From an uncultured Alphaproteobacteria bacterium (lineage in GTDB: Bacteria; Pseudomonadota; Alphaproteobacteria; Rs-D84), in assembly GCA_951801825.1 (NCBI GenBank), contig CATOOF010000002.1, positions 100,441-164,440 on the forward strand: a stretch of DNA of 64,000 nucleotides. Reading direction: 5' to 3'. The notes beneath the pieces were generated by a model. The model saw only the letters and a program-made list of their open reading frames with translations, was not told the origin of the DNA and searched no databases. Positions 33 to 55,046 of the stretch are shown here, one piece after another (positions within the stretch are counted from its first letter, which is position 1; every line of letters begins with the position of its first letter). The position numbers and the translations under genes were made by a program.

Positions 33-219
33 AAAAAAACCACATGAAGTAAGTTCAGGTGGTTGGAGGCAGAAAACAATACAAGATCGATTGCTCTGCT
101 TATTCAATATATTCGCAGACCTCCAACCAAAGGGTTGGACGTGTTTTACGCCCACGCGGGCGATCTTGTATTATGGAGTTTCTAGCCCCAATTAGTAACA
201 GGATTGAATACCGGTTATG
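33..219 (-). promoter_or_regulatory. Structured leader/attenuator RNA, copy E1B; the gene it controls lies beyond the left window edge
   Basis: Minus strand. TGaTATAAT -10 box at 226-234; HP4 at 122-139; conserved loop at 97-117, 21/21 nt identical to 28148-28168; antiterminator 120-128 pairs with 61-69; long-range pair 161-172/78-89; terminator stem 38-64 with U7 at 33-39. Confidence 0.7.
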
Positions 220-276
220 CGTTCCATTATATCATCGCAGCACGTGATTTCCAGCGAAAATGCCGCAATAAAATAT

Positions 277-442
277 AAAAACCCATCATAGGAAAGACGG
301 GCTGGAGGTTAACACTTTTGCACACTAGGTTGCTCACCGTTTATTTATGTATATCACGGCCCCCAACCCAAAAGGATTGGTCGCCCGCGTGGGCGCCTAG
401 TGAGCGAGGTGTTAAACTCGCATAACGGTCTTTTCCGTTACG
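277..442 (-). promoter_or_regulatory. Structured leader/attenuator RNA, copy E1A (no ORF directly downstream; possible sRNA)
   Basis: HP1 421-442, HP2 404-421, HP3 382-395, HP4 363-380, AU-rich loop hairpin 337-359; long-range pairs 409-415/309-315 and 396-402/323-329; antiterminator 360-369/299-308; terminator 282-301 with U5 at 277-281. Confidence 0.65.
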
Positions 443-448
443 ATATGT

Positions 449-477
449 ACTATATCCTAAAAAAGCGCTAAATGCAA
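449..477 (-). promoter_or_regulatory. sigma70-type promoter for E1A
   Basis: TTGCAT (477-472), 17 bp spacer, TATAGT (454-449); predicted TSS about 442, at the start of HP1. Confidence 0.65.
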
Positions 478-6115: not shown

Positions 6116-9100
6116 ATGCGGATATTTGGTTTTGATTTAGGGGTTGCTAGTATTGGTTGGGCTGTTGTTGACATAGACAAGGAAAACGATAATCCAGAGG
6201 CGGGACGGGCCGCTATTGGAAAAATACAGCAATCCGGGGTGCGCATTTTTAGTAAAGCTGAAAGTACAGATGGTTCTTCGTTGGCGGCACCTCGTCGTGA
6301 AAAGCGACTGGTTCGGCGTGCCTTACGCAGAAAAGCGCTGCGAATGAAAGAAATTCGCGCATTGTTAGAAAATAGCGGACTAGGTAGCCAGAATATCGTT
6401 GTTAATGCTGATGATATTGATGTCTGGGCTTTGCGCGCGCAAGACGCTTTTTGCCGCAAGTTGTCGGCGCGTGAACTATCGCGTGTATTGATTCATATGG
6501 CGAAGCATCGCGGGTATAAGTCAATGCGTAAATCCGCAGAGGAAAACGATAAAGAAACAGGAAAAGTACTCGTTTCAATTGCTCGGAATCGCGAAAGTAT
6601 GGGCGAATATAAAACAATGGCTCAGATGATTTATAAGAGTAATTGTGATGGGGCGAGAAAATATCGTAATGGTGACGGAGTATATGATAATTCAATTCCG
6701 CGCGAAGAAATAGAACGAGAACTGAATTATATATTTGATGCCCAGCAGAAATATGGGGTTTTTACTGAAGATTTACTAGAACAATACAAAAAAATTGCAT
6801 TTCGTGTACGCCCAATACAGTCGGTTGGTAAAATGGTTGGTTTGTGTACGTTAGAGCCAAATTGTCTGCGTGCGCCAAAAGAATCCCCAACGGCGGAGTT
6901 ATTTGTGGCGTTGACTAAGATAAATAATATGAAAATTGTTATAGATGGTGAGGTGCGTTCTGTGGATGACGCAGAACGGGCAGCTATATTAGAATTGCTA
7001 AGCAAGACGCAAACGGTTAAATATAAGACACTACATAACAAAATATGGAAGGGGAAAGATGTTGTTTTTCGTGGTGTCAAAGAAGAATCTCAAGATTTTT
7101 ATTCCATGACGGGATGGCATAAACTAAAAAAAATCATGGATGAGGCCGATATGGCTGATACGCGAATGCTTGACCGGATTATGAAGGTTGTTGCCACCCA
7201 GAAAGATGACAGTGCCATAGAAAAAGAATTGCGCCGCAAGAAGGTACCAGAAAAGTATATTGTCGAATTAAAGAAACTATGTACGTCCAAGTTCATAAAT
7301 CTGTCGTTACAGGCACTGTATAAAATAGTTCCAGAAATGATGCGTGGGTTGACGTATGATAAGGCTTGCGATGGGGCGGGCTATGATTTTAAAAGTAAAG
7401 TCTCTGGAGAAGTAAAGGCTGACAATGGATGTATCGCAGAGATTTCAGAATGGACACATGTCCCGGTTGTAAATCGTACGGTCGCCCAATTTCGCAAGGT
7501 TTATAATGCGCTGGTGCGTAAATATGGTATACCAGACCAAGTAAATTTGGAAGTCGGTCGCGAATTAAAGAATAATTTTGACGACCGTAAGAAAATAGAA
7601 CGTAAACAAAACGAAAATCGCGATAAAACAGAAAAAGCCCGAGCAGAGTATGAAGCATTAATCAGCCGCAAAGTCACAACTAAAGAAGTTTTAAAATACA
7701 AACTTTACCAAGACCAAGGCGGAAAGTGTATGTATTCGGGTGAATCAATTGATTTAGAGCATCTGGATAACTATGAAGTTGACCATATTTTACCGTATTC
7801 GCGGTCATTGGATAATTCTTATATGAACAAAATTCTTGTTAAATATACAGAAAACCAGATCAAAGGCAACAAAACGCCATATGAATATTTTGGCAATACT
7901 CTACGATGGGATGATTTCGTTGTACGCGTATCTGCAACCAAGACCTTGGGGGCACGTAAGATTTATAATCTGCTGAATAAAGATTTTGAAACAACAGAAG
8001 ATGATTTTCGCAAACGTAATGCAAATGATAACGCCTATGCCGCCCGATATGTTAGACAGGTATTAAATACCGCATTTCCAGACCTGCGGGTTGACGTGCG
8101 TGCTGGGGCATTGACGCATTATTTACGTGGTCAATGGGGGTTGGAAAAATCACGTACAGAATCGGACAGGCATCATGCCCAGGATGCAATTGTTATTGCC
8201 TGTGCAACGCCGGGTATGGTTCGTTACTTATCAACGATATCCGGATTGTTTGAAAATAAACGTAATGAGAAAGGTAAGCCGTGGTGGAATAATTTGAAAC
8301 AAAATATTCAAGAGCCGTGGGCTGGTTTCCGCGCGGATGTTTTTCGGTCTGTTGATGACGTTTTTGTTTCGCGTACGGTGCGTGGCAAGGCAACTGGTTC
8401 GGTGCATAAAGATACGATTAATTCACCAAAATCTAGTAAGGGGAGTTTAATTTTACCGCGTGGGCGAGCTGATAAAGAAAACATGTTCCGTATGGATGTC
8501 TTTAAGAAAGACGGGAAATATGTGGTTGTGCCAATATTTGTAGCAGACACAGTTGATAAAAAGCGTCAAGATATATTTTATCCGCAACCGGCTAAGGCAG
8601 AACATTCGGTTGCAATTGATGGTACGTATGAATTTGTTATGACTCTGCACAAGGAGGATTATATTAAAATCGTAACAGTGGACGATAAAGTATATGAAGG
8701 ATATATTATTCAGTGTGATATGCCGCGCGGGAAGTTTGTTTTCAGAAATTCTGATAATTCTGCAGTATTTTCTGTTAAAACAGATACGTTTGAGCCAGGT
8801 GATTTTATTGTTATAGATGGTAATTTGTGCAAGGTTATGGATTATTTGGCAGGTAAATTGCGTGCTCTATCTCCGAACGGCATTGTTGAAGAAGTAGAGG
8901 CGGTAAAAAAGCAAACGCGTAAGGGTAAACAAATACAAACTATTGATAAATATGAAAAACGCAGTAAGCAGAAAACAATAAACATAGGTACGGTTAAGAA
9001 TCTGCAAAAATTTCAGATTGGCGTGTTAGGCGACATGTCAGAGGTAAAATCTGGGCATCGTGCACCTGTTTGTGCTATAAAATTGCAATCAGAAAAAAGA

Positions 9101-9169
9101 AAAGGAAGGAAACAGCCAAAAAGGAATAAAAATGGGTTGGCGAATCCTTCAACTAACGAAACCATGTAA
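6116..9169 (+). CDS. cas9: Type II-C Cas9, 1017 aa
   Basis: RuvC-I FGFDLGVASIGWA, Arg-rich bridge helix, RuvC-II NLEVGRE, HNH EVDHILPYSRS-DNSYMNK, RuvC-III RHHAQDA; no csn2 or cas4 in the locus. Confidence 0.98.
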   Translation: MRIFGFDLGVASIGWAVVDIDKENDNPEAGRAAIGKIQQSGVRIFSKAESTDGSSLAAPRREKRLVRRALRRKALRMKEIRALLENSGLGSQNIVVNADDIDVWALRAQDAFCRKLSARELSRVLIHMAKHRGYKSMRKSAEENDKETGKVLVSIARNRESMGEYKTMAQMIYKSNCDGARKYRNGDGVYDNSIPREEIERELNYIFDAQQKYGVFTEDLLEQYKKIAFRVRPIQSVGKMVGLCTLEPNCLRAPKESPTAELFVALTKINNMKIVIDGEVRSVDDAERAAILELLSKTQTVKYKTLHNKIWKGKDVVFRGVKEESQDFYSMTGWHKLKKIMDEADMADTRMLDRIMKVVATQKDDSAIEKELRRKKVPEKYIVELKKLCTSKFINLSLQALYKIVPEMMRGLTYDKACDGAGYDFKSKVSGEVKADNGCIAEISEWTHVPVVNRTVAQFRKVYNALVRKYGIPDQVNLEVGRELKNNFDDRKKIERKQNENRDKTEKARAEYEALISRKVTTKEVLKYKLYQDQGGKCMYSGESIDLEHLDNYEVDHILPYSRSLDNSYMNKILVKYTENQIKGNKTPYEYFGNTLRWDDFVVRVSATKTLGARKIYNLLNKDFETTEDDFRKRNANDNAYAARYVRQVLNTAFPDLRVDVRAGALTHYLRGQWGLEKSRTESDRHHAQDAIVIACATPGMVRYLSTISGLFENKRNEKGKPWWNNLKQNIQEPWAGFRADVFRSVDDVFVSRTVRGKATGSVHKDTINSPKSSKGSLILPRGRADKENMFRMDVFKKDGKYVVVPIFVADTVDKKRQDIFYPQPAKAEHSVAIDGTYEFVMTLHKEDYIKIVTVDDKVYEGYIIQCDMPRGKFVFRNSDNSAVFSVKTDTFEPGDFIVIDGNLCKVMDYLAGKLRALSPNGIVEEVEAVKKQTRKGKQIQTIDKYEKRSKQKTINIGTVKNLQKFQIGVLGDMSEVKSGHRAPVCAIKLQSEKRKGRKQPKRNKNGLANPSTNETM

Positions 9170-10037
9170 ATTATCAGTAAAGCAAAAGCAATTATTTTAT
9201 GAATCAGATGATACCAAAATAACGATTCCGATAGAGGATTTATCGGCCGTTGTTTTGGAGACTGGATTTGTGCAACTAACAGGGCATGTTTTGGCAGAGT
9301 TTGCTACAAATGATGTAGTTCTGATTACGTGTGATGCGTACCATTTACCATCGGGAACGTTTTTCCCATTTCATGATAACTCACGTTATTCAGAAGTGGC
9401 ACATATTCAAATTTCTGCCAGTGAACCATTAAAAAAGCGCGTTTGGCAATCGGTGGTACAACAAAAGATTCTAAATCAATCTGCCGTATTGTGCGCATTA
9501 GGAATAGATAATGTGCTAAGTGAAATAGTCAAGCGAGTGCAAAGCGGTGATAGTGATAATCGCGAAGCTCACGCGGCGCAATTATATTGGCGGTTACTAT
9601 TTGGAGATTTTACGCGTCGCGATGATGCGAATATTATAAATAAGGCTTTAAATTATGGTTATGCCATTGTGCGTGGCTGTATGGCACGCAACATTGTTGC
9701 GTCGGGATTGTTGCCTTGTTTTGGTATTCATCATGATAATCAATTAAATCAGTTTAATCTGGTTGATGATATGATGGAGCCATTGCGTCCATTTGTAGAT
9801 TATTGTGTAGCGAAGTTAGATTTATCCGAGTGTTCGGATTTAACGCCAAAATTAAAAAGCAAACTAATATCAGTATTGTTGTGTAATGCAAATATGAATG
9901 GTGAGGCCATATCATTACTTAAATGTGTGGAAATAATGTCGGCATCATTGGCCAAGACATTAAGACAAAAGGATTATCGTTTATTATCTTTGCCTGTATT
10001 TGATTTTTCTATGTTGGATGTGGGAGATTTTAAGTAA
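9132..10037 (+). CDS. cas1: CRISPR-associated endonuclease Cas1 (type II)
   Basis: MGWRILQL start, NREAHAAQLYW, LNYGYAIVRG, GIHH-NQLN-FNLVDDMMEP. Confidence 0.97.
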   Translation: MGWRILQLTKPCKLSVKQKQLFYESDDTKITIPIEDLSAVVLETGFVQLTGHVLAEFATNDVVLITCDAYHLPSGTFFPFHDNSRYSEVAHIQISASEPLKKRVWQSVVQQKILNQSAVLCALGIDNVLSEIVKRVQSGDSDNREAHAAQLYWRLLFGDFTRRDDANIINKALNYGYAIVRGCMARNIVASGLLPCFGIHHDNQLNQFNLVDDMMEPLRPFVDYCVAKLDLSECSDLTPKLKSKLISVLLCNANMNGEAISLLKCVEIMSASLAKTLRQKDYRLLSLPVFDFSMLDVGDFK

Positions 10038-10366
10038 TGGCGCAATATGGGGAACGATTTATGAGAATGATAGTATTTTTTGATTTACCAACACTAACAA
10101 AACAAGATAGAAAGCGAGCATCTAAATTCCGTAACGCTTTATTAAAGGATGGATACTATATGATGCAATTGTCTGTTTATTCCAGAATTTGTAAGGGTAT
10201 GGCACAGGTTGAAAAACATGTCGGACGCCTAAAATGCTTGATTCCGCCAAGCGGAAGTGTTAGGCTAATGACAGTAACAGAAAAGCAGTTCGCTGATATG
10301 GAAATATTGGTTGGCGAATCGAAAAAACAAGAAAAAATAGGTGCAAAGCAGCTTGTTATGTTCTAG
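10037..10366 (+). CDS. cas2: CRISPR-associated endoribonuclease Cas2
   Basis: RFMRMIVFFDLP, FRNALLKDGYYMMQLSVYSR; start overlaps the cas1 stop. Confidence 0.96.
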   Translation: MAQYGERFMRMIVFFDLPTLTKQDRKRASKFRNALLKDGYYMMQLSVYSRICKGMAQVEKHVGRLKCLIPPSGSVRLMTVTEKQFADMEILVGESKKQEKIGAKQLVMF

Positions 10367-10384
10367 TTTTTCTTTAAATAATTG

Positions 10385-10418
10385 CGAAATAACCCGCTAT
10401 ATTCAGCGGGTTATTTCG
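10385..10418. terminator. 14-bp stem hairpin between cas2 and the array (probably bidirectional terminator)
   Basis: cgaaataacccgct-atattc-agcgggttatttcg. Confidence 0.7.
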
Positions 10419-10423
10419 TTTGT

Positions 10424-10723
10424 ATTATATCAATGCCAATTAGGAAAGCAATCTACAACGATAAAGCCAATGCCAAAGAATCAATTGATATTATATCAAT
10501 GCCAATTAGGAAAGCAATCTACAACAGTATCAGCGTACATAGACGAACAACATAAATTATATCAATGCCAATTAGGAAAGCAATCTACAACCTATTTTTA
10601 TTATAGAAACCATTAACAGCTATTATATCAATGCCAATTAGGAAAGCAATCTACAACGTTGAATCGTGAGATATTTACTACTGGTCAATTATATCAATGC
10701 CGATTAGGAAAGCAATCTACAAC
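10424..10723 (-). CRISPR. CRISPR array: 5 repeats of 36 bp and 4 spacers of 30 bp, plus a possible 5th spacer and degenerate repeat to about 10763
   Basis: Repeat (+ strand) attatatcaatgccaattaggaaagcaatctacaac at 10424, 10490, 10556, 10622 and 10688 (last copy has one A>G change). The minus sense GTTGTAG...TGATATAAT matches II-C repeat style and the tracr anti-repeat. Confidence 0.97.
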
Positions 10724-27283: not shown

Positions 27284-27943
27284 ATGAAGATATTAAACAA
27301 AAAAATTGCGTCGAAAAAGTCATCTGTTGCCTGGCTGCAGCGCCAGGCGGCGGATCCGTATGTCGCCCGTGCCCAGCGTGACGGGTATCGCGCGCGCGCG
27401 GCATACAAATTGATAGAAATGAACGAAAAATTTCATTTCTTAAAAAATGGCCAGGTTGTTGTTGACCTGGGGGCGGCGCCGGGTTCATGGACACAGTATG
27501 TAACGCGTGAATTTCCGCGTAGCAAGGTTTTTGCTATGGACCTGTTAGAGATAAAGCCTATTCCCGGCGTAGAATTCTATCAGGGCGACTTTACAGAGGA
27601 TGCGGCGCTGGGGTGGCTGGTTGAAAAATTAAATCTGTCCGCAGATGCCGCGGAAAACGGTACGGTGGATGTTGTAATGTCCGATATGGCACCCAATACG
27701 GTGGGGCATAAAAAAACCGACCATATCAGACAAATGGTGTTGCTGGAATATGCGTTTGATTTTGCGTTGCGCGCACTGAAGCCTGGCGGAACGTTTGTTG
27801 CAAAATCTTTTACAGGTGGCACTACAAACGAACTGTTAAAGCAGATAAAGGACAATTTTGACAAGGTTTATCATATAAAACCGCCATCATCTCGCAAGGA
27901 TAGTGTTGAAATGTTTATTGTTGCAATGGGATTTCGTGGATGA
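27284..27943 (+). CDS. rlmE: 23S rRNA Um2552 methyltransferase
   Basis: YRARAAYKL, VDLGAAPGSW, SDMAPN, KPPSSRKDSVE (K-D-K-E tetrad). Confidence 0.95.
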   Translation: MKILNKKIASKKSSVAWLQRQAADPYVARAQRDGYRARAAYKLIEMNEKFHFLKNGQVVVDLGAAPGSWTQYVTREFPRSKVFAMDLLEIKPIPGVEFYQGDFTEDAALGWLVEKLNLSADAAENGTVDVVMSDMAPNTVGHKKTDHIRQMVLLEYAFDFALRALKPGGTFVAKSFTGGTTNELLKQIKDNFDKVYHIKPPSSRKDSVEMFIVAMGFRG

Positions 27944-28014
27944 TGTTCGGCCGCTTTTATAGCGGCCATTTTTTATTTCTTGTTTTATCAACCGGTAATG
28001 TATATAATATCAAA

Positions 28015-28228
28015 TGTCACAAAGTGTTTTTGTGATGGGGTGTGAAGACCTCTGCGTAAGCGTCGGAATATTAAGTCTGTGGTGTTTTGTATACATCGGA
28101 CTTGGCCTTTCGATGACAAGTAATCTCCTGGCCTTGGTCAGGAGGGTTGCGAATATATTGAATAAGCACACGGTTCTTACGATTGTCTTCAACCTCCTGA
28201 CCACCACAAAGCTGGTGGTTTATTCTTT
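28015..28228 (+). promoter_or_regulatory. Structured leader/attenuator RNA, copy E2
   Basis: Promoter TTGTTT (27980), 17 bp, TATAAT (28003); HP1 28017-28035, HP2 28037-28052, HP4 28125-28144, conserved loop 28148-28168; long-range pairs 28043-49/28185-91 and 28055-60/28176-81; antiterminator strand 28190-28202; terminator accacca/tggtggt with T-rich tail. Confidence 0.8.
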
Positions 28229-28253
28229 GAAAAAAAGTGGGGGATTGAGCAAT

Positions 28254-28862
28254 ATGGTAAAAAGATATTTGGTGGCATGCATAATGTTGGGCGGGGTTTT
28301 GCATTGTATACCGGCCGCGGCATTGGTCCAGGGCCAGGCATGCCCCACGACCGGTTTTGGCAGTTGGTATGTATATCAATGCAATTGTGCAAATGATGGG
28401 CGTCACTGGATGTGTAATAACAGCCCAGATTATTTAGAGGTCAACGGGCAAACAACATGTTATATAACCAGGGCTGATGGTGGTGCAGATGATGAAGCGA
28501 CCTGGATTTGCGCCAAAGAGCGTAACGGCAGTCCGTGTACCGTGTGTAAGTGTCCGCAATCAACCGGCTGGGAAGTGTATCCTGGGGATGAAACCAGTGT
28601 TGTAAAATATACGTATAATAATGTAAGTTCTTCCTATTTATGCGATTTTATATCAAGAAAAGAGGAATATGGCTGTAATGTCGGATATTATGAAGATGGG
28701 AGTAATTGGTGTGTTGATTGTCCGTCTTATGGCGGGATTTCCGGGACCAACGAAATTGGAACAACGGCTAAGGCTACATGCTATATCCCGCCCAATGTCA
28801 CTGGTAACGACGGGGCCGGAACATTTACCTATGTGGCGAAATGTAACTGGTCGGGTTCATAA
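28254..28862 (+). CDS. Cys-rich secreted/surface protein
   Basis: Signal peptide MVKRYLVAC..AAA, many Cys, CNVGYY and C-terminal CYIPP...D-AGTFTY--KC-W; start moved from 28014 to ATG 28254, downstream of the terminator. Confidence 0.8.
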   Translation: MVKRYLVACIMLGGVLHCIPAAALVQGQACPTTGFGSWYVYQCNCANDGRHWMCNNSPDYLEVNGQTTCYITRADGGADDEATWICAKERNGSPCTVCKCPQSTGWEVYPGDETSVVKYTYNNVSSSYLCDFISRKEEYGCNVGYYEDGSNWCVDCPSYGGISGTNEIGTTAKATCYIPPNVTGNDGAGTFTYVAKCNWSGS

Positions 28863-28887
28863 AAAAACGCCCAAAGGGGCGTTTTTT

Positions 28888-29316
28888 TTATTTTAATGAT
28901 TCGGCCGCCGTGCGTGCCAGAATGTCACAACGCTCGTTCAGTTCTTCGCCGGCATGGCCCTTTACCCAGACCCAGTGAATTTTTGTTCGTGCCGACGCGG
29001 CGTCCAGTGCCTGCCACAGGTCCTGGTTCTTTACCGGCTTTTTATCCGCCGTGCGCCAGTTGTTGCGTTTCCAATTTTTCAGCCATGACTGCATGCCGTT
29101 TTTTACATACTGGCTGTCTGTGTGAATTTCCACCTCTGCGTGACGGTGTGCCGCCGTCAGTGCACGCAGTACCGCCATTAATTCCATGCGGTTGTTTGTT
29201 GTGTCGTTTTCGCAGCCGCAACGTTCGGCGGTATCTTTTCCGTTGGTTGCCACAAATGCCCAGCCGCCGGGGCCTGGGTTGCCAAGACAGCTGCCGTCGG
29301 TCCATATTTTTAACAT
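28888..29316 (-). CDS. rnhA: Ribonuclease HI
   Basis: IWTDGSCLGNPGPGGW, TTNNRMEL, TDSQY, WVKGHAG---NERCD. Confidence 0.96.
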   Translation of the reverse strand: MLKIWTDGSCLGNPGPGGWAFVATNGKDTAERCGCENDTTNNRMELMAVLRALTAAHRHAEVEIHTDSQYVKNGMQSWLKNWKRNNWRTADKKPVKNQDLWQALDAASARTKIHWVWVKGHAGEELNERCDILARTAAESLK

Positions 29317-39739: not shown

Positions 39740-40225
39740 TTACCATGGGCAAATATCTGCATACGTGCCGTTTCCCGATGTGTCGGAAAAGCTGAATCCT
39801 TTTGGTATATAGCATTCTTCCTGCTGGGTGGCGCCTGGGCCAGATGTTGTTCCAGGCGATGTGCATGCGGTGCATCCCGTGCATTGGGTTTTAAGGTTGT
39901 TTAATTTGGCGGTGCCGTAATAGCCCTGCCGACAGCGTGCCGTTATTGTTACAGAGCAATAATTGTTAACGCAGCCCTTGGTGCTGACCTTGTTGCATCC
40001 ATTGCCCATATTGCTAACAGTTTCGCCCGAACATGTTGAAGGGGAGCATTCCATTGGGTTTGGCGGCTCGAATTCGCATGGCGGACAGCATGTTGCGCCG
40101 TAATTCAGGCATTTCGTATTGTCTGTTTCGAGGGTGCACTTTATGCATGTAATCCCCAGTGCCACTGCGTTTTGCGTTAACATAAGGGTTGCGCCGATTG
40201 TGGCGATTGTTATACCGGTTTTCAT
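39740..40225 (-). CDS. Cys-rich secreted/surface protein (paralog of 28254-28862)
   Basis: Signal peptide, CRQGYYG, C-terminal CYIPKG---SD-SGNGTY---CPW; RBS aggag; start ATG 40225. Confidence 0.85.
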   Translation of the reverse strand: MKTGITIATIGATLMLTQNAVALGITCIKCTLETDNTKCLNYGATCCPPCEFEPPNPMECSPSTCSGETVSNMGNGCNKVSTKGCVNNYCSVTITARCRQGYYGTAKLNNLKTQCTGCTACTSPGTTSGPGATQQEECYIPKGFSFSDTSGNGTYADICPW

Positions 40226-40261
40226 TTGTTCTTGTCTCCTGCTCTGTTCTTTCTGCGAACG

Positions 40262-40472
40262 AAAAAACCACCAAAACATTTGGTGGTCAGGAGGTTGAGA
40301 ACAATCCTTAGAATTGTGCTGTTTATTCTATATACTCACAGCCCTCCTGACCCGGGCCAGGAGTTTGTTTATCGTCGTAATACTAAAACGGGCGCACAAC
40401 GGCGCGCCTTAAGATTCTATTCCGACGCTAAGGCAGAGGTTCTCACACCTCATTCGCGGAACACCCGCGAAC
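40262..40472 (-). promoter_or_regulatory. Structured leader/attenuator RNA, copy E3
   Basis: Promoter TTGTAT (40507-02), 17 bp, TATACT (40484-79); HP1 40453-71; HP4 40344-63; loop hairpin 40319-41; long-range pairs 40439-45/40296-302 and 40428-33/40306-11; terminator accaccaaa/tttggtggt + U5. Confidence 0.8.
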
Positions 40473-40543
40473 AAGATAAGTATAGCCTGTATGCGGTAAA
40501 AATACAAACGAAAAAATCCCGCCGTCGCGGGATTGTGATTTGA

Positions 40544-49871: not shown

Positions 49872-49958
49872 GCGGATATGGCGGAATTGGTAGACGCGCT
49901 AGTTTCAGGTACTAGTGGCAGCAATGCCTTGGAAGTTCGAGTCTTCTTATCCGCACCA
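49872..49958 (+). tRNA. tRNA-Leu(CAG)
   Basis: Cloverleaf with long variable arm; anticodon loop ttcaggt; encoded CCA. Confidence 0.95.
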
Positions 49959-49967
49959 AGAAGTTTT

Positions 49968-50043
49968 GGGGTTGTAGCTCAGTTGATAGAGCGCTACGTT
50001 CGCATCGTAGAGGTCGTGGGTTTGAGTCCCATCAGCTCCACCA
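49968..50043 (+). tRNA. tRNA-Ala(CGC)
   Basis: Anticodon loop ttcgcat; G3:U70 identity pair; A73; CCA; non-canonical D and T loops. Confidence 0.9.
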
Positions 50044-50284
50044 ATATAAAGCATGTAAAATCAATAAGTTGCACAAAATAAGAAAGACGGCAGAAATGCC
50101 GTCTTTAATTTTTATCAACACTATATCAACAAATCGGAAGAAAAAATTTCTTGCACCAGAAAACAAAAGTAAATACATTTTGTGGATTTTATATCCCTGC
50201 CCCCCCCCCCAGTGACGTGCCATGGTACCTTTTGTTTGGTCTTTTGGTATTTACAATGGGGTAAATTCCTGATATAATACAAAT

Positions 50285-50480
50285 GAATCCAATGGGAATT
50301 GGGTTCGGGGTCTTTCAAAACCCATACGATACGGCGTGTGTTGCGTCGTAATCCGATTATGCCTGACCGCAAGGTCGGGTGTCTGTTGTTATATAACAGG
50401 CTTGTCCAAAAGCAACAGGGTCATTTATCGTATGATTTTGAAAACGCCCGACCGCCATTCCTTTGGCGGTTTAATTTTAT
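50285..50480 (+). promoter_or_regulatory. Structured leader/attenuator RNA, copy E4 (divergent sequence, same architecture)
   Basis: Promoter TTTACA (50250), 17 bp, TATAAT (50273); HP1 50285-306; HP4 cctgacc-gcaa-ggtcggg; long-range pairs 50313-20/50436-43 and 50324-31/50426-33; antiterminator 50373-82/50444-53; terminator accgcca/tggcggt + T-rich tail. Confidence 0.7.
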
Positions 50481-50494
50481 CTTGGGAGAATTTT

Positions 50495-50914
50495 ATGAAC
50501 TATGCAAATGTGCCCATAGACACACAGCTGGCTTTTGTTTTGCCTGGGTGGCTAATACTTGGACTATTCTCGTTTTCCGTTGTTGCATGTATCGCTTTTG
50601 CTTGTGCCACCAGAAAATATGTCCGAGAAATAAAAGAAAACTTTCCACGACTTAACATCAAAATAAACGTCATACTGTTTGGGTTGATGTTTTTAGCGTG
50701 GTTTGCGCAAATTGCTACATATGTAGAGCTTGCTGTTCGTGGACATGTAGGAATTGGGTGGTTGCATTTCTTTGCTGCAAAGTATTTTATCGCTAGGTCA
50801 ATCGTATTGAATTATTCCGAGCAAGGCTATATCCACAAAACAATTCTGATTTACGCAATAGTGTATATTATTCTATATGCTTGCGGTTTTATATTGGGAG
50901 GGCTGTTATGGTAA
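50495..50914 (+). CDS. Small membrane protein (AT-rich)
   Basis: 3-4 TM segments; RBS gggag; start moved to ATG 50495 after the E4 terminator. Confidence 0.7.
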   Translation: MNYANVPIDTQLAFVLPGWLILGLFSFSVVACIAFACATRKYVREIKENFPRLNIKINVILFGLMFLAWFAQIATYVELAVRGHVGIGWLHFFAAKYFIARSIVLNYSEQGYIHKTILIYAIVYIILYACGFILGGLLW

Positions 50915-54872: not shown

Positions 54873-54959
54873 GGGGATATGGCGGAATGGTAGACGCTGA
54901 GGACTTAAAATCCTTTGGTTATTGCAACCGTGTGGGTTCGAGTCCCACTATCCCCACCA
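54873..54959 (+). tRNA. tRNA-Leu(TAA)
   Basis: Anticodon loop cttaaaa; long variable arm; CCA. Confidence 0.95.
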
Positions 54960-54969
54960 GAAATCTGTC

Positions 54970-55046
54970 GGATGTGTAGCTCAGTTGGTTAGAGCGCTTC
55001 GTTCACATCGAAGAGGTCGTCGGTTCGAGTCCAATCACATCCACCA
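54970..55046 (+). tRNA. tRNA-Val(CAC)
   Basis: Acceptor ggatgtg/cacatcc; anticodon loop ttcacat; CCA. Confidence 0.95.

Follow-up and report, generated by a model that had tools for sequence, protein, structure and literature searches.

Five elements in the window, by which we mean the whole 64-kb stretch of DNA that was analysed, are genuine copies of one large leader-RNA family (E1A, E1B, E2, E3 and E4). As we model it, each element is a promoter-driven 5' leader of ~170–215 nt that probably acts as a transcription attenuator, OFF by default and built on a module of the c4/sRNA-Xcc1 type. An antisense RNA of the phage-immunity type (c4/Xcc1) seems to have been converted here into a cis-acting terminator switch, with a sequestering strand and a terminator gained and a translational target lost. 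The 47 copies of this single structured RNA take up ~1% of a 0.9-Mb genome. The family is likely a main gene-control layer in Candidatus Enterousia and its relatives, an uncultured gut lineage with reduced genomes and few protein regulators.

Distribution and layout of the leader family

A covariance model of the 3' core (R1), trained on 15 copies, recovered 47 copies in the 897-kb, 96%-complete source genome, many of them arranged as tandem arrays; the five named elements are its only matches inside the window. The preliminary description of this DNA, made from the sequence alone, had listed the five copies with their pairings, and every pairing that it quoted was located where it had been placed. 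It had also suggested a search of related genomes with such a model. This search found the family throughout the genus, in 24 of 24 sampled genomes at 1–52 copies per genome, and weaker R1 matches both in further families of the order and elsewhere among small-genome Alphaproteobacteria. The family is one of tiny-genome gut Alphaproteobacteria. Distant matches, when inspected, had different sequences and the same architecture: a hairpin carrying a1, then b1, the c:d hairpin, HP5, a hairpin carrying b', a', e, the terminator, and an RBS with a start codon. Several assemblies end adjacent to family copies.

The E2 leader (28015–28228, plus strand) illustrates the layout. Upstream of it, an rlmE-like gene ends at 27943 and is followed by its own terminator at 27949–27967, as detected in the terminator scan. 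A –10 box (TATAAT) is present in the sequence at 28003–28008, and the full sigma-70 scan found no –35 box for E2. In the MFE fold the leader begins with a 5' hairpin, HP1 (28016–28036), followed by HP2 (GGGG...CCUC; 28037–28052), which is also backed by covariation and holds a1 (tgaagac, 28043–28049) in its loop. The linker b1 (cgtaag, 28055–28060) leads into HP3 (28061–28117), a variable insert hairpin that is missing from the type II subfamily. HP4 (28125–28145) is formed by the c strand (28125–28133) and strand d (ggtcaggagg, 28136–28145), the latter able to pair with c or with e. HP5 (28147–28169) has the conserved loop GAAUAUAUUGAAUAAG, common to hairpin 1 of sRNA-Xcc1. In the HP6 region that follows (28170–28191), b' (cttacg, 28176–28181), the partner of b1, lies in the HP6 loop, and a' (gtcttca, 28185–28191), the partner of a1, comes after it. 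Strand e (cctcctgacc, 28193–28202) pairs with d, and its final 4 nt fall in the stem of an intrinsic terminator (28199–28228) that the scan places as an 8-bp stem (28199–28220) with a U-rich tail.

The other elements have the same parts. E3 (40261–40484, minus strand), with a –10 box at 40484–40479 and HP2 at 40451–40436, has a1 at 40445–40439, b1 at 40433–40428, c at 40363–40355, d at 40352–40343, b' at 40311–40306, a' at 40302–40296, e at 40294–40285 and a terminator at 40288–40266. E1A (271–454, minus strand; –10 box 454–449) has a1 at 415–409, b1 at 402–396, c at 380–374, d at 369–360, b' at 329–323, a' at 315–309, e at 308–299 and a terminator at 303–280. The corresponding positions in E1B (33–253, minus strand; promoter 253–226, HP5 117–97) are a1 183–179, b1 172–161, c 139–133, d 128–120, b' 89–78, a' 75–71, e 69–61 and a weak terminator at 62–33. 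For E4 (50250–50479, plus strand; promoter 50250–50278, HP1 50286–50305) they are a1 50313–50320, b1 50324–50331, c 50362–50368, d 50373–50382, b' 50426–50433, a' 50436–50443, e 50444–50453 and terminator 50450–50471. A common order running from promoter to terminator had been described for all five. The sigma-70 scan found promoter-like sites for E1B and E4, and the terminator scan found terminator-like hairpins with U tails in E2, E3, E1A and E4; the order is less complete in E2, E3 and E1A, where the promoter consists of a –10 box only, and in E1B, whose terminator hairpin is weak (15-nt loop). The 21-nt HP5 sequence is exactly the same in E2 and E1B, an identity pointed out earlier for the loop, with 0 matches expected by chance.

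Several further features were observed around these elements. The HP3 tip of E3 (40408–40391), like that of many type I leaders of relatives (loci L047 and L048), is a terminator-like GC-rich hairpin with a U run, possibly an additional terminator inside the leader that separates a1/b1 from the c4-like domain; HP3 of E2 has no such tip. A run of 11 C at 50200–50210, ~40 nt 5' of the E4 promoter's –35 box, may act as a contingency tract for slipped-strand variation of E4 or of an adjacent gene. Two similar tRNA-gene pairs lie ~5 kb apart (49872–50040 and 54873–55043), with E4 directly 3' of the first. Elsewhere in the window, ORFs of 1017 aa (6116–9169), 301 aa (9132–10037) and 109 aa (10037–10366) stand directly 5' of a CRISPR array (10404–10723) of five 36-nt repeats with 30-nt spacers, an arrangement (6116–10723) typical of a small type II (cas9-cas1-cas2) locus, which we annotate as putative.

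Genome-wide, most copies stand before genes that encode secreted cysteine-rich proteins or small XRE HTH_3 regulators. E2 precedes a gene for a 202-aa secreted cysteine-rich protein (28254–28862, plus strand), with a GGGGGA RBS ~10 nt upstream, and E3 precedes a gene for a 161-aa protein of the same kind (39740–40225, minus strand). The two proteins have a common C-terminal module, and no Pfam match was found for the secreted cysteine-rich downstream proteins, these two included. A 282-aa ORF (28014–28862) stays in frame across the whole E2 leader and continues into the real gene, with its signal peptide start at 28254, an example of how gene callers can misread leaders as coding. The gene after E4 encodes a 139-aa predicted membrane protein (50495–50914, plus strand; GGGAG RBS at 50483–50487). 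E1A runs into E1B as a tandem array with no gene or ORF after it, and E1B is one of ~8 array-terminal copies in the genome that have no downstream ORF. When the downstream genes were tabulated, as had been suggested, the idea that the family gates accessory surface genes fitted E2 and E3, whose products are secreted, and more loosely E4, with its membrane protein; it does not apply to the geneless E1A and E1B, and it had missed the many small XRE regulators.

In 26 of the 47 copies an RBS and start codon lie 14–31 nt past the terminator, and relatives have the same layout. Because this gap leaves no room for a promoter, expression of the downstream gene must cross the terminator. The E2 leader and its gene form an accessory, species-variable module, since in 59 of 60 genus genomes homology to the E2 region (window 27943–28900) reaches the end of the rlmE-like gene and goes no further; the orthologous E2 locus is present in only one other genome of these 60 (G724).

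Locus-specific address pairing

Long-range pairing of the HP2 loop and linker with a downstream strand (A–A'), with compensatory changes, had been noticed in the five copies and holds in a larger set. We aligned 23 full-length type I leaders, seven from the source genome and the other 16 from its relatives. Pairing is complete in both address helices (a1:a', 161 of 161 cells; b1:b', 138 of 138), with as many as four pair types per position, and each of the 23 leaders has an address of its own, distinct from all others. In the b1:b' helix both sides have changed at five of six pairs, and the whole nested structure is paired at 98.6%. There are 110 double-change cells, against 29 ± 4 in shuffled alignments (0 of 500 shuffles as high), so the covariation first seen in five copies persists in the larger alignment. 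Sliding the partners by 1–3 columns reduces pairing to 52% or less. G-U pairs are frequent on one strand in these leaders, which fixes the transcribed strand. Identity among the leaders is 39–54% in the address columns and 97–100% in d, e and the HP6 stem, or 98–100% in d and e alone; hypervariable addresses beside invariant helices suggest selection for locus-specific RNA–RNA recognition.

The same specificity is seen across the wider family. With model-aligned segments from 95 loci, the duplex between the upstream region and a'b' has an energy of –16.5 kcal/mol within a locus and –10.9 kcal/mol with other loci (p = 1e-44). Read base by base, a1/b1 is complementary to a'/b' in 16 of 17 copies, the remaining copy being truncated, and likewise in 23 of 23 type I leaders. 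The orthologous E2 leader of another species carries a compensatory b1/b' change, from CGTAAG/CTTACG to CCTAAG/CTTAGG. A genome-wide search found no second target for any a'/b' pair, and the excess of a'/b' matches over mismatched controls consists of the own a1/b1 site and the antisense of the own a'/b'. Downstream RBSs of the 47 copies showed no target of the a2/b2 type, and duplex energies between a'b' and the downstream 90 nt were –12.6 for the same locus against –11.5 for other loci, with the same locus best in 2 of 47. Such naturally orthogonal address pairs represent a ready set of non-cross-reacting RNA–RNA locks for engineered terminator switches.

These data also bear on the question whether the copies are dispersed repeats or mobile-element remnants, their pairings being by-products of inverted repeats with no regulatory role. 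High copy number, the variable locus of E2 (homology ending at rlmE in 59 of 60 genomes) and the assembly breaks beside several copies would agree with that reading, but we regard it as extremely improbable. Promoter, leader, terminator, RBS and start codon keep a fixed orientation, address pairing is maintained at 100% by compensatory changes although the sequences differ, the G-U pairs are strand-specific, the architecture is kept across families and orders with different sequences, and no transposase is adjacent. Nor do the copies look simply like mobile-element ends, a possibility raised in the preliminary description: the address columns are 39–54% identical and the placement before an RBS and start codon is fixed.

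Relation to sRNA-Xcc1 and c4 antisense RNAs

At gathering thresholds, Rfam 15 identified only tRNAs in the window; the leaders reached no family, known riboswitches among them, in agreement with the first reading of the sequence. The claim that they form an undescribed class, on the other hand, needs revision, for the d...e domain (B...B' in the preliminary description) is a sub-threshold relative of Rfam sRNA-Xcc1 (RF02221). This domain aligns to the whole RF02221 model at 28.8–39.2 bits against a 53-bit threshold, a range that covers every copy scored, those from other families of the order included. Reciprocally, R1 recovers genuine Xcc1 loci at 15–27 bits, with E-values down to 1e-4. RF02221 itself is above threshold in 46 of 401 sampled Pseudomonadota genomes, and sRNA-Xcc1 is known from Xanthomonas campestris, integron cassettes, prophages and Xylella genomic islands.

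The leaders and Xcc1 have in common a 9–10-bp closing stem that starts with GG and surrounds two hairpins in a three-way junction, a hairpin 1 with GAAUA...AAUAAG, a hairpin 2 whose loop varies, a joint that varies too, and an RCC tail. Both can be multi-copy and tandem, as in the case of five tandem Xcc1 copies in Xylella (PMC12189769). Among genuine Xcc1 loci, L031, L034, L036, L045 and L046 also have an upstream hairpin with a1 in its loop and a b1 linker, the same module as in phage P1/P7 c4, and in L036, L045 and L046 the sites are repeated over the downstream RBS or start codon. Unlike these last three, the present copies have no a2/b2 at the downstream RBS. They further differ from Xcc1 in having a c strand, by which the 5' side of the closing stem is sequestered (a contrast in which the GC-rich Xcc1 genomes confound the energy test) and an intrinsic terminator that overlaps the 3' strand; a U-run terminator follows the closing stem in 0 of 16 genuine Xcc1 loci. 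Also unlike Xcc1, they occur as 47 chromosomal copies 5' of genes for secreted proteins and XRE regulators.

Published accounts of the c4 RNA of phages P1 and P7 give it a length of 77 nt and describe RNase P cleavage at a GGW motif, binding of mRNA by its a'/b' loops, and a P1 versus P7 specificity of 4 nt (PMC5320573, PMC11143913, PMC8198154). Two of these accounts, which summarise Citron & Schuster 1990 and Hartmann et al. 1995, place the a1/b1 and a2/b2 sites in the immI operon and describe how c4 occludes the icd RBS via a2/b2, thereby indirectly causing downstream termination (PMC5320573, PMC11143913). Judged by this published description, our leaders are like c4 in that a'/b' is complementary to a1/b1 upstream in the same transcript, specificity resides in a few nucleotides, the closing stem begins at GGW, and the leader of the controlled operon is itself the source of the RNA. 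Candidate RNase P-type features can be read from the sequence, where d starts with GGU, GGA or GGC and RCC follows e. The leaders gave no match to RF01695 (C4 antisense RNA) at E ≤ 10 in one search and E ≤ 1 in another, and they differ from c4 in the lack of a2/b2, in a terminator built into the RNA, and in a location on the host chromosome instead of in phage immunity.

In Acinetobacter baumannii, the group 1 c4-like sRNAs form a large paralogous set with variable a'/b' and arise by processing of longer transcripts; the published description is of trans-acting RNAs, and neither a cis-acting terminator leader locked by a1/b1 nor a c strand is reported for them (PMC5320573). The present family resembles them in its many c4-derived paralogues with variable a'/b' in one genome, and differs in its phylum-level lineage and gene context. 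We found no description of a terminator-leader version of c4/Xcc1 in the literature. What is new is the c strand, together with the intrinsic terminator, the loss of a2/b2 as a downstream target and the genome-wide expansion.

The preliminary description had interpreted the elements as an undescribed riboswitch or attenuator class. Read as a riboswitch, the folded leader would be bound by a small molecule or by a protein of its own, for instance at the junction of its helices or at the conserved loop of HP5, and the balance between terminator and antiterminator would shift. The terminator/antiterminator geometry inside a P1-like helix, the strong conservation of the HP5 loop and the lack of matches to known riboswitches are compatible with this, and a single shared signal could co-regulate a surface-protein regulon. 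Even so, we consider it unlikely. The only strongly conserved unpaired stretch, the HP5 motif GAAUA...AAUAAG, is common to c4/Xcc1 RNAs and inherited from those antisense RNAs, while the A-rich junction linkers are variable and HP3 is dispensable. The fastest-evolving parts are the RNA–RNA address pairs (23 of 23 distinct), and the downstream genes, for secreted cysteine-rich proteins and XRE regulators, serve neither transport nor metabolism. These points make ligand sensing less likely, and we found neither an Rfam riboswitch match nor a set of downstream genes from one metabolic pathway.

Alternative folds and a proposed terminator switch

Strand d can pair either with c, locally as HP4, or with e, which overlaps the terminator stem. 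Both c and e track the changes in d between subfamilies (examples of d are GGUCAGGAGG, GGUUGGAGG, GGGAUUGGAU, GGUCGGGGG and GGCAGGAAGG); because all three strands are invariant within type I, the support for their helices comes from this between-subfamily comparison. Pairing is locus-specific for c:d (p = 1e-14) and d:e (p = 2e-33) when own and other loci are compared, and both sides have changed at 8 of 10 d:e pairs in an alignment of 97 sequences that is model-fitted and so leans towards the model. The HP2 5' strand likewise has two partners, the local HP2 strand or the first bases of e (ACCUC in E2), and HP2 pair 2:15 covaries between G-C and A-U. A structured leader with two mutually exclusive folds and a covarying long-range pairing, as the preliminary description proposed, is supported. 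In one respect its picture was too strong: it had B pairing with the 5' side of the terminator, and the d:e pairing is indeed present and locus-specific, but B' overlaps the terminator stem by only 2–4 nt.

In pseudoknot-free folds, the structure combining A–A', c:d and the terminator (the closed fold) has the lowest energy in each of the five window copies. A–A' covariation alone does not favour this fold, because A–A' could also form a pseudoknot on the alternative, open fold. The cost of forcing d:e in the full-length RNA is 6–17 kcal/mol among the five copies, and when only e has emerged it is 1.7 kcal/mol in E2, 2.3 in E3, 5.7 in E1A, 11 in E1B and 7 in E4. Since the closed fold is the energy minimum in 5 of 5 copies, the default is probably OFF; with termination apparently the default, read-through should need a factor. 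Given its energetic disadvantage in the full-length RNA, the open fold may never form during transcription without an effector.

As modelled, the leaders have the two attributes of an intrinsic-terminator attenuator, a terminator placed between promoter and start codon, and a mutually exclusive alternative helix that involves the terminator stem. They are comparable to three-strand attenuators such as trp (1:2 / 2:3 / 3:4), with c:d as anti-antiterminator, d:e as antiterminator and e:terminator as terminator. Unlike trp-type attenuators and riboswitch platforms, they have no leader peptide and no known ligand aptamer, and unlike classical attenuators they have an extra lock, a private RNA–RNA address pair inherited from an antisense RNA. 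Ribosome-mediated attenuation through a leader peptide was considered and rejected: the conserved AUG where HP1 meets HP2 has no RBS before it and lies inside the HP1 stem.

The data show the helices with their covariation and mutual exclusivity, the overlap with the predicted terminator, the gene context and the homology to Xcc1; regulated termination, its direction and its trigger are what we infer in the following model. In the closed fold, a1 in the HP2 loop and b1 in the linker would bind a' and b', the HP2 5' strand would bind the first half of e, and c would lock d as HP4; the end of e, left free, would complete the terminator hairpin and stop transcription before the RBS. In the open fold HP2 would close on itself and d:e would give a three-way junction of the c4 kind, starting with GG(U/A) and ending in an RCC tail, so that the foot of the terminator would lose 2–4 bp and RNA polymerase could read into the gene. 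The open fold would need a favouring factor. Candidates are the processed c4-like RNA of the locus itself, which would target nascent a1/b1, RNase P, which would bind or cleave d:e as a tRNA-like stem, or a protein on the conserved HP5 loop.

A more speculative extension, which we hold to be rather doubtful, is that each locus is a self-addressed, RNA-only bistable switch in which positive feedback holds its gene ON or OFF. Read-through RNA would adopt the c4-like form and RNase P would cut at the GG foot of d:e. The freed small RNA, with a'/b' exposed, would recognise only the nascent a1/b1 of its own locus and keep the bound transcripts from the terminator-locked fold. If true, the state of a surface-protein or regulator gene would be heritable without a change in DNA. 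Such a switch would explain why 23 of 23 addresses are distinct and mutually orthogonal beside invariant helices, and why a'/b' has no other targets in the genome.

An alternative to regulated attenuation is also conceivable, with the elements as stand-alone sRNA genes of the c4 type that have their own promoter and a constitutive terminator and whose functional product is perhaps an RNase P-trimmed core of ~75 nt. Downstream genes would then be expressed by leak-through or be incidental neighbours. We see this as possible, though on the improbable side. The ~8 array ends without an ORF fit an RNA with a function of its own and count against the attenuator reading; orphan or tandem copies such as E1A/E1B favour stand-alone genes, the tandem arrays recall the Xcc1 copies in Xylella (PMC12189769), the multi-copy processed c4-like sRNAs of A. 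baumannii are a precedent (PMC5320573), and a truncated copy (C2:16858) has its own promoter and lacks a1/b1. Against this stand the 26 of 47 copies that lie 14–31 nt upstream of an RBS and start codon, too near for another promoter to fit, the lack of a second a'/b' target genome-wide, the lack of a2/b2 at downstream RBSs, and a c strand that covaries with d and would have no role in a stand-alone sRNA.

We prefer the attenuator reading. Two further observations deserve mention. The RBS context downstream of the leaders resembles d: among type I genes with a GGAG site, 5 of 5 read CAGGAG (CA background 12%; in E3, window 40240–40234), and (A)UGGAG, with the motif UGGAGG, occurs in 6 of 8 genes after type II leaders. 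With such a context the c or e strand could also mask the RBS; the cases lack independence, since a leader is duplicated along with its gene. The truncated copy (C2:16858–16972, corresponding to L004:209–323 and outside the window) has its promoter directly 5' of the c:d hairpin, and its a' (ATTTCAG) is the same as that of a full copy 400 nt downstream, which makes the truncated copy a possible trans-acting partner.
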